Source: Escherichia coli
Lineage (GTDB): Bacteria; Pseudomonadota; Gammaproteobacteria; Enterobacterales; Enterobacteriaceae
NCBI RefSeq assembly: GCF_017348835.2
Contig: NZ_CP071375.1
Length of the DNA: 64,000 bases
Reading direction: 5' to 3' (one strand)
In this document: piece by piece, positions 1-50,087 of the stretch
Position numbering within the stretch: the first letter of the stretch is position 1
Layout of the letters: every line of letters begins with the position of its first letter
Notes under the pieces: generated by a model
Database searches by the model: none
Told to the model about the DNA's origin: nothing
Seen by the model: only the letters and a program-made list of their open reading frames with translations
Program-made: the position numbers and the translations under genes

Positions 1-164
1 CCAAACCGGAGTTTCAGGTGCGCTGGCGCTGGCAACCAAATGATATTGCGATTTGGGATAACCGCGTGACCCAGCACTATGCCAATGCCGATTACCTGCC
101 ACAGCGACGGATAATGCATCGGGCGACGATTCTTGGGGATAAACCGTTTTATCGGGCGGGGTAA
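1..164 (+). CDS. tauD: Taurine dioxygenase, 3' end (partial; runs off the window start)
   Basis: Open frame from the window edge ending ...[11 protein letters not shown], stop at 162-164; matches the TauD/TfdA family C-terminus and the K-12 neighbour of hemB. Confidence 0.7.
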
Positions 165-322
165 TACGAGAGTGGACGGTCCCCTTGAGCGGCGAAAGAA
201 CGTTGATATAGATGAAGCGAGTGCGGACGGTCCACTCGCCCCCTTGGGGAGAGGGTTAGGGTGAGGGGGAGTTCACTGTACTTTCAATAGGTTAACTCCC
301 CCAACCGGAAGGCGTAAAAGTA

Positions 323-1297
323 TTAACGCAGAATCTTCTTCTCAGCCAGATCCAGCGCAAAGTAGCTGAAAATCAGATCCGCACCTGCACGCTTAATCGA
401 ACCTAAGCTTTCGAGCACCACTTTCTCTTCATCTATAGCACCCGCCAGCGCGGCGAACTTAATCATCGCGTACTCACCGCTCACCTGATACGCGCCAATC
501 GGCAATTCAGTACGTTCACGCAGCTCACGCACGATGTCGAGGTACGCTCCAGCAGGTTTAACCATCAGGCAGTCTGCGCCCTGGGCTTCATCCAGCAGTG
601 ACTCACGAATCGCCTCACGACGGTTCATTGGGTTCATCTGATAGCTTTTGCGGTCGCCTTTTAATGCGCTTCCGGCAGCTTCACGGAACGGACCATAAAA
701 GGAGGAGGCGAACTTGGTCGAATACGACATAATCGCCGTATCTTTAAAGCCAGCAGCGTCCAGCGCCTGGCGAATCGCCTGTACCTGGCCATCCATCGCG
801 GCGGAAGGGGCGATGAAGTCTGCACCTGCAGCAGCTGCAACCACGGCTTGCTTGCCTAAATTTTCCAGAGTCGCGTCGTTGTCGACGCCATGCTCGCACA
901 GCACACCGCAGTGACCGTGAGAAGTGTATTCACAGAAGCAGGTGTCTGACATGACAATCATTTCTGGCACTGTCTGCTTGCAGATGCGCGACATACGCGC
1001 CACCAGTCCATCTTCCCGCCAGGCATCGCTGCCGGTTTCATCGGTATGGTGAGAGATGCCAAAAGTCATCACGGAACGAATACCGGCGTTGGCGATGCGT
1101 TCAATTTCGCGTGCCAGATGTTTCTCTGGAATGCGCATCACGCCTGGCATGGCTTCAACGGCTTTGTAGTCGTCAATTTCTTCTTCAACAAAGATCGGCA
1201 ACACCAGGTCGTTAAGGCTAAGTGTTGTCTCTTCAAACATAGCGCGCAGCGCAGGAGATTTGCGCAGGCGACGAGGGCGTTGGATTAAGTCTGTCAT
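323..1297 (-). CDS. hemB: Porphobilinogen synthase (delta-aminolevulinate dehydratase)
   Basis: 335-aa ORF recognised as HemB; start placed at the internal Met ([13 protein letters not shown]...) giving 324 aa. Confidence 0.93.
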
Positions 1298-1820
1298 GGT
1301 CTGCCTGATGTTTGTGGAATCGAGGGGCATAGTATACCTGAAGCAGGGTAGGGATGTTTTACGAAAGTTGTCGCGATGTTGACAAGAAGAGAATGGAAGA
1401 GAGGCCAGGACATCTTTTTAATAGAAACAGCAATAATTTTATATTCACTGAAAATATTTTTAATCTTTATTTATAGCTATTGGTTATTATTCTTTGGAGT
1501 TTGGTTGCGCTGCTATAAATTGAATAATTAAAACTTTGTTGCATATTCATAGGATATTTATCTGGTTTGTGTTTGTGATATTTATTATGCGAATGTTTCA
1601 AAAATAAAATTATCTGCAACATGTTGAAATACTATGCTTTTATGAATTTGATGCGTGTTTTTCTCCATAAATTATATATGTCCACATTCGGACTTAGGGG
1701 AAAGAATAATTGAACCATTCGTCTGTAACGCAGCATAATCGTTAGCGCGAAACATAAGATGTTTTCTATGCATTGATAATTGATGGATCAACTTATTACG
1801 TCCCTGAGGAGGGATGACAA

Positions 1821-4796
<2,976 letters not shown>

Positions 4797-45170: not shown

Positions 45171-46058
45171 TCAGGCTGCCAGATCATTATTTCCGATGGA
45201 AGCATAATAAGCTTTTTCTGCTTCTGCCGGAGGAATATGGCCCAGCCTTTCCAGCAATCGTCGATTGTTATACCAGTCCACCCACGTGAGTGTGGCCAGT
45301 TCCACTTCTGTCCGGTTTTTCCAGCTCTTACGGTGTATTACCTCCGCTTTGTAAAGACCATTGATGCTCTCAGCCATCGCGTTGTCATACGAGTCGCCAG
45401 TACTCCCTGTTGATGCCAGTAATCCGGCTTCCTTAAGCCGCTGCGTGTAGGCCAGCGATACATACTGAGAACCTTTATCACTGTGATGGATTGTGCCGGA
45501 CGGCCGACGGGCCCACAACGCCTGCTCCAGTGCATCCAGCACGAATGTTGTTTCCATGGATGATGAGACCTGCCATCCCACGATGTATCCGGCGAACACA
45601 TCAATGATGAACGCCACATAAACGAAGCCCTGCCATGTGCTTACCCAGGTAAAATCAGCCACCCACAACTGGTCTGGACGTTCTGCCACGAACTGACGGT
45701 TTACGCGGTCGCATGCGGCAACGGCTTTCCGGCTGACGGTAGTGCGGACCTTTTTACCCCGGAGAACACCGGCAAGTCCCATAACTGCCATGAGACGTGC
45801 CACAGTGCATCTGGCCACTCTGATACCTTCCCGTAACAACTGACGCCAGACTTTACGCACACCGTATACCTGGTGATTTTCATCGTATACGCGCTGTATC
45901 TCTTTCTTCAGCCAGTCATCGTGCTGCGCACGGGCACTGCGTTTATCCGGATGATGTCGCTGTTGCTGACAATGGTAATACGTTGACGGGGCAATATGCA
46001 GTTCGCTGCATACCGGTCCGCCCCCGTACTGCTCACGCAGCTTATCCAGCAGTGGCAT
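45171..46058 (-). CDS. IS629 transposase OrfB (DDE catalytic domain)
   Basis: 295 aa in -1 frame relative to orfA; integrase-core DDE region (ADFTWV...HHSDKGSQY...DNAMAES). Confidence 0.9.
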   Translation of the reverse strand: MPLLDKLREQYGGGPVCSELHIAPSTYYHCQQQRHHPDKRSARAQHDDWLKKEIQRVYDENHQVYGVRKVWRQLLREGIRVARCTVARLMAVMGLAGVLRGKKVRTTVSRKAVAACDRVNRQFVAERPDQLWVADFTWVSTWQGFVYVAFIIDVFAGYIVGWQVSSSMETTFVLDALEQALWARRPSGTIHHSDKGSQYVSLAYTQRLKEAGLLASTGSTGDSYDNAMAESINGLYKAEVIHRKSWKNRTEVELATLTWVDWYNNRRLLERLGHIPPAEAEKAYYASIGNNDLAA

Positions 46059-46384
46059 TATTTTTTCCAGAGGCGGTCGAACTCCGCCTTCGCAAAATAA
46101 GCGGAAGCCTGGCGAAGGATATCGTTACTGCGGCGCAGTTCACGATTTTCACGTTCCAGCTCTTTCAGACGCTGACGTTCAGCGGTGGTGAGTCCACCAT
46201 CACCACTCCCGGTATCCCGCTCATGCTGGCGAACCCAGACACGCAGAGTCTCCGGCGTACAGCCAATCTTTGGGGCAATGGAACAAATTGCCGTCCACTG
46301 TGAGTCATATTCATCCTGACTTTCCAGAACCATACGAATCGCCCGCTGACGGACTTCGGGGGAAAAACGAGTATTTTTAGTCAT
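46058..46384 (-). CDS. IS629 transposase OrfA (HTH)
   Basis: 108 aa [23 protein letters not shown]...; IS3-family OrfA with leucine-zipper-like C-terminus. Confidence 0.9.
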
Positions 46385-48873: not shown

Positions 48874-49200
48874 ATGACTAAAAATACTCGTTTTTCCCCC
48901 GAAGTCCGTCAGCGGGCGATTCGTATGGTTCTGGAAAGTCAGGATGAATATGACTCACAGTGGGCGGCAATTTGTTCCATTGCCCCAAAGATTGGCTGTA
49001 CGCCGGAGACTCTGCGTGTCTGGGTTCGCCAGCATGAGCGGGATACCGGGAGTGGTGATGGTGGACTCACCACCGCTGAACGTCAGCGTCTGAAAGAGCT
49101 GGAACGTGAAAATCGTGAACTGCGCCGCAGTAACGATATCCTTCGCCAGGCTTCCGCTTATTTTGCGAAGGCGGAGTTCGACCGCCTCTGGAAAAAATAA
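48874..49200 (+). CDS. IS629 transposase OrfA
   Basis: 108 aa; differs from copy A OrfA at one residue (A vs T); ends in an A6 run next to the orfB start. Confidence 0.9.
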
Positions 49201-50087
49201 TGCCACTGCTGGATAAGCTGCGTGAGCAGTACGGGGTCGGACCGGTATGCAGCGAACTGCATATTGCCCCGTCAACGTATTACCATTGTCAGCAACAGCG
49301 ACATCATCCGGATAAACGCAGTGCCCGTGCGCAGCACGATGACTGGCTGAAGAAAGAGATACAGCGCGTATACGATGAAAATCACCAGGTATACGGTGTG
49401 CGTAAAGTCTGGCGTCAGTTGTTACGGGAAGGTATCAGAGTGGCCAGATGCACTGTGGCACGTCTCATGGCAGTTATGGGACTTGCCGGTGTTCTCCGGG
49501 GTAAAAAGGTCCGCACTACCGTCAGCCGGAAAGCCGTTGCCGCATGCGACCGCGTAAACCGTCAGTTCGTGGCAGAACGTCCAGACCAGTTGTGGGTGGC
49601 TGATTTTACCTGGGTAAGCACATGGCAGGGCTTCGTTTATGTGGCGTTCATCATTGATGTGTTCGCCGGATACATCGTGGGATGGCAGGTCTCATCATCC
49701 ATGGAAACAACATTCGTGCTGGATGCACTGGAGCAGGCGTTGTGGGCCCGTCGGCCGTCCGGCACAATCCATCACAGTGATAAAGGTTCTCAGTATGTAT
49801 CGCTGGCCTACACGCAGCGGCTTAAGGAAGCCGGATTACTGGCATCAACAGGGAGTACTGGCGACTCGTATGACAACGCGATGGCGGAGAGCATCAATGG
49901 TCTTTACAAAGCGGAGGTAATACACCGTAAGAGCTGGAAAAACCGTGCAGAAGTGGAACTGGCCACACTCACGTGGGTGGACTGGTATAACAATCGACGA
50001 TTGCTGGAAAGGCTGGGCCATATTCCTCCGGCAGAAGCAGAAAAAGCTTATTATGCTTCCATCGGAAATAATGATCTGGCAGCCTGA
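49200..50087 (+). CDS. IS629 transposase OrfB (DDE)
   Basis: 295 aa; -1 frame relative to orfA and open upstream of its ATG; 3 aa differences from copy A (V13G, A/T near the C-terminus, R/L). Confidence 0.9.
   Translation: MPLLDKLREQYGVGPVCSELHIAPSTYYHCQQQRHHPDKRSARAQHDDWLKKEIQRVYDENHQVYGVRKVWRQLLREGIRVARCTVARLMAVMGLAGVLRGKKVRTTVSRKAVAACDRVNRQFVAERPDQLWVADFTWVSTWQGFVYVAFIIDVFAGYIVGWQVSSSMETTFVLDALEQALWARRPSGTIHHSDKGSQYVSLAYTQRLKEAGLLASTGSTGDSYDNAMAESINGLYKAEVIHRKSWKNRAEVELATLTWVDWYNNRRLLERLGHIPPAEAEKAYYASIGNNDLAA

Follow-up and report, generated by a model that had tools for sequence, protein, structure and literature searches.

In the window analyzed here (a stretch of 64,000 nt of Escherichia coli DNA, one strand, numbered from its first nucleotide), the convergent genes tauD and hemB enclose a spacer that contains a BoxC element, a member of a family of short intergenic repeats. 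BoxC at tauD-hemB is already known and has been catalogued at this exact site, and the finding is real but ordinary. By far the most probable explanation of the spacer, in our judgment, is one complete BoxC with a tandem 51-bp unit based on the BoxC arm, together making up a slippage-prone, structure-prone 3' sequence that has no dedicated regulatory role. The arm is arranged in tandem, the number of units differs from strain to strain, and BoxC itself is present at this site in some E. coli genomes and absent from others. The 51-bp arm-based minisatellite and the series of four spacer alleles are modest new details within a known phenomenon.

Genomic context of the spacer

The spacer is 158 nt long (positions 165-322) and is bounded by the tauD stop codon (TAA, 162-164, plus strand; ORF 18..164) on the left and by the hemB stop codon (323-325, minus strand; ORF 323..1330) on the right. 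Both gene names come from E. coli records: region 150-335 occurs at 100% identity in four complete E. coli genomes (megablast), where the flanks are annotated as tauD and hemB. The hemB ORF encodes 335 aa when counted from the first ATG; the K-12 hemB gene measures 975 bp including the stop codon (324 aa), and the true start is probably an internal ATG (MTDLIQRP...).

The only small ORFs in the spacer (22-43 aa) are out of frame and overlap the gene ends, and none of them is credible; a promoter consensus scan of the spacer likewise returned no sites. The K-12 record has no repeat feature annotated under the tauD-hemB spacer, and a literature search on the tauD/hemB intergenic region yielded no report of an sRNA or of a typing locus.

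Two other features of the window deserve a record. Downstream of hemB, an uninterrupted autotransporter ORF of 984 aa occupies 1821-4775 on the plus strand; the K-12 MG1655 gene at this position is yaiT, a split pseudogene by its annotation (flags j2p), and yaiT may be intact in this strain. An A-rich tandem array of ~130 bp is found at 37916-38047, with a period of 12, 35 or 46, a unit of approximately GGAAAAAATTGC and 75-86% matches.

Repeats and motifs in the spacer

The first-pass annotation, made from the letters alone, had reported partner sequences and a G-rich run in the spacer, and all of these are present as placed: GAGTGGACGGTCC at 170-182, GCGGACGGTCCACTC at 223-237 and the G-rich run CCCTTGGGGAGAGGGTTAGGGTGAGGGGGAG at 241-271. 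They resolve into a 19-nt direct repeat (167-185 and 218-236; 84% identity, 51 nt from start to start), an inverted repeat of 13 nt (170-182 and 225-237; 92% complementarity) and another inverted repeat at 265-276 and 291-302. These exceed chance expectation: none of 300 mononucleotide shuffles of the spacer equaled the 16/19 matches of the direct repeat or the 12/13 of the inverted repeat, and the G-rich 22-mer occurs once in the window, with 0 occurrences expected. The direct and inverted repeats are therefore real; what had gone unseen is that the partners are one BoxC arm in tandem.

The G-rich portion also includes a canonical G-quadruplex motif at 246-269 on the plus strand, with four G3+ tracts separated by 3-nt loops, which contains the HPG1 sequence GGGAGAGGGTTAGGGTGAGGG of Kaplan 2016. 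In a regular-expression scan it was the only motif on either strand of the 64 kb to satisfy the G3+N1-7 x4 rule. With the G-quadruplex term of ViennaRNA switched on, hairpins outcompete the G-quadruplex in the context of the spacer.

Identification of the BoxC element

A complete type A BoxC element occupies 218-270 on the plus strand, and consists of a 5' arm (218-236, hereafter L2) followed by a three-block core. Within the family, the core is laid out as a C-rich block, a short loop, GGGGAGAGGG, a second loop (TTA in type A or CCG in type B) and GGGTGAGGGG (PMC4666352), and the 36-nt TMECO/PIT core at 233-268 (plus strand) reads CACTCGCCCC-CTT-GGGGAGAGGG-TTA-GGGTGAGGGG. TMECO motifs are the elements earlier named BoxC and PIT, and 23 copies have been catalogued in MG1655, one of them at tauD-hemB (PMC4666352). 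This last copy is TMECO no. 5 in Table 1 of Holder 2015 (PMC4666352), given as CCCTCGCCCCCTTGGGGAGAGGGTTAGGGTGAGGGG, MG1655 388,664-388,699, type 'A mm', sense strand. The core in the window differs from it at one base, a private C->A change at position 234 in the first C block. The same locus is HPG1 no. 13 of Kaplan 2016 (PMC5100583), with its midpoint at 388,688, the sequence GGGAGAGGGTTAGGGTGAGGG and a placement 31 nt from tauD and 54 nt from hemB, the two genes pointing toward it. A full-text search for the core strings GGGTGAGGG and GGGAGAGGG matched two papers, both of which name the tauD-hemB locus. In alignment, the K-12 spacer is collinear with that of the window, save for the 51-bp difference and the other differences noted here.

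Membership of the family was also assessed with a hidden Markov model (HMM) built from 14 type A copies at other K-12 loci, the tauD-hemB copy being excluded. Using nhmmer, the model matches 215-280 with 54 bits (E 3.8e-16). Across the whole 64 kb it gave one further match only, a weak one at 163-185 (6 bits, E 0.28), which aligns to HMM positions 13-35, the identical positions to which the true arm aligns.

When 18 further copies from 14 other K-12 loci are stacked on the core, BoxC homology continues for ~20 nt beyond the left edge of the 36-nt core (..GCGCAC-GGAC-GGTCCCCTCGCCCC..). The left consensus of type A is roughly aaGnGCaC-(g/a)(g/a)(a/t)C-(g/a)GTCCCCTCGCCCC, and the right is GAAmAG..GCAC. 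Since family homology continues to the left of the core, GAGTGGACGGTCC is the BoxC 5' arm itself. The stack and the HMM exclude the case that would tell against membership, namely other BoxC copies lacking the arm and core found here. All of the 19 copies inspected among the 23 catalogued in MG1655 are intergenic.

The suggestion that the spacer holds a member of a small intergenic repeat family is thus borne out, the family being BoxC/PIT/TMECO, and a search for other copies, which the same annotation had proposed, finds many of them dispersed: blastn with region 236-305 gave matches in 5,409 of 5,426 complete E. coli genomes, at a median of 17 and a maximum of 32 places per genome. This count fits the 22-32 BoxC copies published.

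The 51-bp tandem repeat

Upstream of the complete BoxC lies a tandem repeat, the 51-bp unit of which is made of a 19-nt arm and a further 32 nt. The first, partial unit begins with an orphan BoxC 5' arm (L1, CGAGAGTGGACGGTCCCCT, 167-185, plus strand), recognized from the direct repeat, the weak HMM alignment (E 0.28) and the K-12 stack. It is followed by a locus-specific 32-nt part (U, TGAGCGGCGAAAGAACGTTGATATAGATGAAG, 186-217, plus strand), which K-12 lacks and of which FDAARGOS_944 and Escherichia sp. E1V33 each have two. The number of unit copies is 0.4 in K-12, 1.4 in the window and 2.4 in both FDAARGOS_944 and E1V33. In an alignment of the spacers of eight genomes, K-12 is exactly 51 bp shorter than the window and FDAARGOS_944 is 51 bp longer.

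Tandem Repeats Finder (TRF) called a repeat in FDAARGOS_944 (period 51, 2.4 copies, 87% matches) and no tandem repeat in the window. Because 1.4 copies fall below the TRF threshold, the 51-bp repeat becomes evident only from the comparison of strains. The units stand head to tail and their copy number varies between strains, as is expected of a tandem repeat or VNTR.

The unit is uncommon. It was detected in 238 of the 5,426 E. coli genomes, at a single locus in each (blastn, 11-nt words, E <= 1), and is absent from 96%. About 227 of the carriers have a diverged version (90% identity, the E. coli C type), and eight have one that is at least 99% identical to that of the window. An exact-pattern scan of ~100,000 GTDB species representatives added one further genome, Escherichia sp. 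E1V33, at the same locus. Its 2.4 unit copies are mutually diverged and its hemB is ~93% identical to that of the window; given such diverged copies at the same locus, the 51-bp repeat is old.

A 32-nt segment between 19-nt direct repeats could also be read as a miniature transposable element with a 19-bp target-site duplication, or as a CRISPR-like repeat-spacer remnant. We consider either extremely improbable. A transposon would be expected at several sites, with terminal inverted repeats and a target-site duplication; however, the segment is confined to one locus among the 5,426 E. coli genomes and, outside E. coli, to the same locus of a single Escherichia species among the GTDB representatives, and the repeats on either side are copies of an arm that belongs to the neighboring BoxC, with only 84% identity. 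In a CRISPR-like array the spacers would be unrelated, whereas the "spacers" of successive units here are homologous to each other, which makes the array a tandem repeat. We also considered the 32-nt U part as a decayed BoxC core or a duplicated 3' end of tauD, and dropped both ideas, as its local alignments with the end of tauD and with the BoxC core are no better than those of shuffles (p 0.1-0.98).

To return to the tandem repeat, K-12 looks to have acquired its short form by a collapse between direct arms. This short form is found on both haplotypes of the 3' tail (Eco_24-2013 compared with the window; K-12 compared with E. coli C), which would imply recurrent loss or recombination between haplotypes.

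In K-12, the left flank of the BoxC locus between yjdP and phnP contains a partial BoxC right end (GGGGAGAGGGAGAAAAC) and then, in a short duplication, the beginning of the arm (CGAGCGCAAT ... CGAGCACAAT, at a distance of 19 nt). Duplicated arms beside BoxC may therefore not be unique to tauD-hemB.

Spacer alleles across E. coli

Allele classes were defined with a 411-nt query spanning the spacer in the 5,426 genomes. A BoxC-bearing spacer is found in 3,596 of them; the majority resemble that of K-12 (MG1655, 106 bp; Eco_24-2013, 107 bp), and the extra unit occurs in 238. In ~1,830 genomes, about a third (~34%), the match is 292 nt long only, and these form the class that lacks BoxC. One genome of this class has a 39-bp spacer (226-264 of its extracted locus), TAA-GGGGGAAATGCCGGGTTGGATAACCCGGCATAATGATCA-TTA, which forms a hairpin of 10 perfectly matched base pairs (-17 kcal/mol; z between about -3.4 and -4.0, depending on the strand). 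This spacer and the BoxC allele have no sequence in common, so that between lineages the spacer as a whole has been replaced, in contrast to a simple insertion. In E. coli the spacer thus has at least four lengths, namely 39, about 106, about 158 and about 203 bp; the outgroup comparison covered one genome, and either the 39-bp hairpin allele or the BoxC allele may be ancestral.

Smaller changes accompany these. The tail of the spacer (303-322) is hypervariable, and alignments separate two sharply different haplotypes, AACCGGAAGGCGTAAAAGTA here and TTTCTGAGAGGAAACAAAA in K-12. Deletions of 6 nt in the core have removed GGGAGA in FDAARGOS_943/944 and GTGAGG or TGAGGG in E1V33; they differ, are independent, and each takes out one of the four G tracts. 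We attribute them, with moderate confidence, to slippage in the G tracts. Such variation matches the statistics of Holder 2015 (PMC4666352), in which TMECO loci are unusually rearranged among E. coli strains.

In the case of E. coli OkiPb01697 (NZ_AP042583.1), the spacer and part of each gene are replaced, in a "complete" genome, by ~830 bp of GGAAT satellite, long poly-T and CCTGG repeats lying between a truncated tauD and hemB (1555-2390 of the extracted locus). This insert is almost certainly an assembly artefact or the product of contaminating reads.

Predicted structure and the question of a structured RNA

The arm contains the palindrome GGACNGTCC (GGAC-N-GTCC), and two direct copies of it are consequently partly complementary. 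The private C->A change at 234 (CCCCT to CCACT) extends this complementarity (GAGTGG/CCACTC), and it is the palindrome together with this change that makes the partners look inverted as well as direct. The same change costs the canonical BoxC stem one base pair.

As an alternative to a repeat, the first-pass annotation had proposed a structured RNA, to be checked by structure prediction and an Rfam scan. On this reading the spacer would be a structured non-coding RNA or a cis-regulatory element of the 3' UTR, with the fold (a hairpin of L1, U and L2 plus the hairpins downstream) as its functional unit. The fold of the whole spacer does surpass those of shuffles on either strand (z -3.35 and -3.65), and the hairpin predicted for 165-240 is strong in this rare haplotype (-29.4 kcal/mol, z -3.29). 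However, the equivalent region of the commoner E. coli C-type allele, which is that of ~227 of the 238 unit carriers, reaches only -17.7 kcal/mol (z +0.34), no better than shuffles, and the alignment of alleles reveals no compensatory changes in the arms; the fold is not kept across variants. The 51-bp unit is missing from 96% of genomes and the whole element from ~34%, and the spacer offers no promoter-like site. Rfam, searched over 1-2000, has no match in the spacer even at E <= 10. A dedicated structured RNA is unlikely, since the fold is not conserved, Rfam is empty and there is no plausible small ORF, and we give very little credence to the fold as a functional unit.

At the gathering threshold, Rfam identified across the whole window only two elements, both elsewhere. 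These are full-length matches to the ALIL pseudoknot (RF01497) at 45987-46103 (minus strand) and 49155-49271 (plus strand), with 116 and 120 bits, in inverted orientation and ~3 kb apart. IS3-family insertion sequences use ALIL as a frameshift signal, and the pair may mark two IS copies bracketing a short segment.

Distal hairpin and transcription termination

A consensus scan of 165-322 on both strands found no hairpin followed by a T run, and it was fair of the earlier reading to describe the spacer as something other than a simple terminator. There is nonetheless a distal hairpin at 265-302, formed by the second inverted repeat (arms 265-276 and 291-302). Its left side takes in the last G tract of BoxC; the loop and the right arm are specific to this locus and fall outside the BoxC family in the K-12 stack. 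Predicted over 260-306, the fold is stable whichever strand is taken (plus, -21.3 kcal/mol, z -3.2; minus, -20.3 kcal/mol, z -2.9), and it is possible that this predicted structure is a 3'-end hairpin common to both convergent genes. We also compared it with an inverted remnant of type B BoxC, as is found in five paired K-12 loci; the length of the linker (28 nt) and the terminal TTAA agree, but 10 of 28 positions match by eye, and the identification is unsupported.

The hairpin, alone or together with that of BoxC, might act as a bidirectional terminator or 3'-end stabilizer for tauD and hemB. Beyond its stability on both strands, this idea can draw on the retention of the hairpin in every BoxC-bearing allele examined, on the TTTCT that follows it in the K-12 haplotype, and on the 10-bp hairpin at the equivalent place in the BoxC-free allele, which suggests that a hairpin is wanted here. 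Against it, what comes after the hairpin in the window is AACCGG (plus strand) or TCACCC (minus strand) and no U tract, the scan for terminators is negative, and the K-12 variant weakens the stem with no compensatory change. Transcription data from K-12 also indicate that the hemB strand is read through. In supplementary file 2 of Adams et al. 2021 (eLife), a region of Rho termination that is sensitive to bicyclomycin is placed at MG1655 388,499, minus strand (Rho score 3.8, p 2e-9). As this region lies on the hemB strand beyond the stop codon, K-12 hemB transcription appears to cross the spacer. A shared terminator or stabilizer is, in our view, a possible if rather doubtful reading.

The same Rho region raises the question of whether the C-rich complement of BoxC is a rut site on the hemB transcript, with Rho ending hemB transcription after it has read through the spacer into antisense tauD. 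The region is antisense to tauD, ~250 nt past the hemB stop codon and ~165 nt past BoxC. In the hemB-strand RNA, C makes up 60% and G 3% of the 30 nt across 272-243, where the excess of C over G is the largest in the 3' region, and neither strand of the spacer has a site resembling an intrinsic terminator. Rho-region calls, however, use 800-nt windows and do not map a rut site. Rut sites need unstructured RNA, whereas complementary G tracts border this C-rich tract, and the predicted fold has it base-paired. Roughly one E. coli genome in three does without BoxC at this site, and PIT elements are reported to have neither promoter nor terminator activity (Hoyne and Maher 2002, as cited in Holder 2015, PMC4666352). 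We regard a rut site here as unlikely.

Interpretation

Our preferred reading remains that of a complete BoxC with a tandem arm-based unit. By default, BoxC at tauD-hemB would be largely neutral, and would provide only structure-prone 3' untranslated sequence for both genes. Its core, with one C-rich and two G-rich blocks, could fold back on itself into a hairpin, intrastrand triplex or G-quadruplex; the family accounts in PMC4666352 and PMC5100583 describe the formation of intrastrand triplexes or G-quadruplexes in vitro (CD, NMR). Units of 51 bp would be gained and lost by replication slippage or by short-homology recombination between the 19-nt arms, and G tracts would be lost by slippage, with the non-B-DNA potential of the core probably contributing to the instability. 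We hold these three steps with moderate confidence.

A bolder version would make the BoxC 5' arm an active substrate of recombination or slippage that seeds local minisatellites, while the C-rich strand doubles as the hemB rut site for Rho. We think this combination decidedly unlikely. Were it true, BoxC would be a repeat with a strand-specific role in termination between convergent genes, and the minisatellites that it seeds would include the 0.4 to 2.4 copies described here and the smaller arm duplication at yjdP-phnP in K-12.

The value added by the present analysis is descriptive, and comprises the extension of the family by ~20 nt to the left, the copy-variable 51-bp arm repeat and the series of alleles of four lengths. 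Holder et al. had described "instability around triplex motifs" in statistical terms, and the tauD-hemB spacer becomes a concrete, well-resolved case of it; its alleles could be used as a natural series for any effect of BoxC on 3'-end formation in convergent genes.

Comparison with known systems

The closest system is BoxC itself, described as 56 bp long with ~32 copies in E. coli in the survey of Bachellier, Clement and Hofnung 1999; Petrillo et al. 2008 (PMC2267715) recovered it, with 22 copies, as a model of 50 nt. The spacer element shares its character as a GC-rich, imperfectly palindromic, strictly intergenic dispersed repeat; its copy number agrees, and arm plus core measure ~53 nt here (218-270) against the published 50-56 bp. 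What sets the tauD-hemB copy apart is that its first C block has the private C->A change and that an orphan 5' arm lies 51 bp upstream, neither of which touches anything essential.

The PIT/TMECO literature (Hoyne et al. 2000; Hoyne and Maher 2002; Holder et al. 2015, PMC4666352) covers the ortholog as TMECO no. 5 and describes the same kind of strain-to-strain intergenic rearrangement. The published motif is the 36-nt core only, however, and the main text of PMC4666352 does not mention the 51-bp arm repeat. HPG1, described as a switch between G-quadruplex, hairpin and duplex (PMC5100583), corresponds through the identical 21-nt GGGAGAGGGTTAGGGTGAGGG, the conserved C-rich 5' flank and locus no. 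13; in the window, unlike in HPG1, a second C-rich partner downstream (CTCCCCC, 296-302) can sequester the last G tract.

REP/BIME and ERIC (IRU) elements resemble the spacer element in being short, structure-prone, intergenic enterobacterial repeats, often between convergent genes. They belong to a different sequence family, the arm and core consensus here being that of BoxC.

To our knowledge, the tauD-hemB repeat is not in use as a typing locus. It is nevertheless comparable to minisatellites, or VNTRs, in being a tandem repeat of period 51 with 0.4, 1.4 or 2.4 copies according to the strain, and it is set apart from them by a unit that is built in part from the arm of a dispersed repeat.
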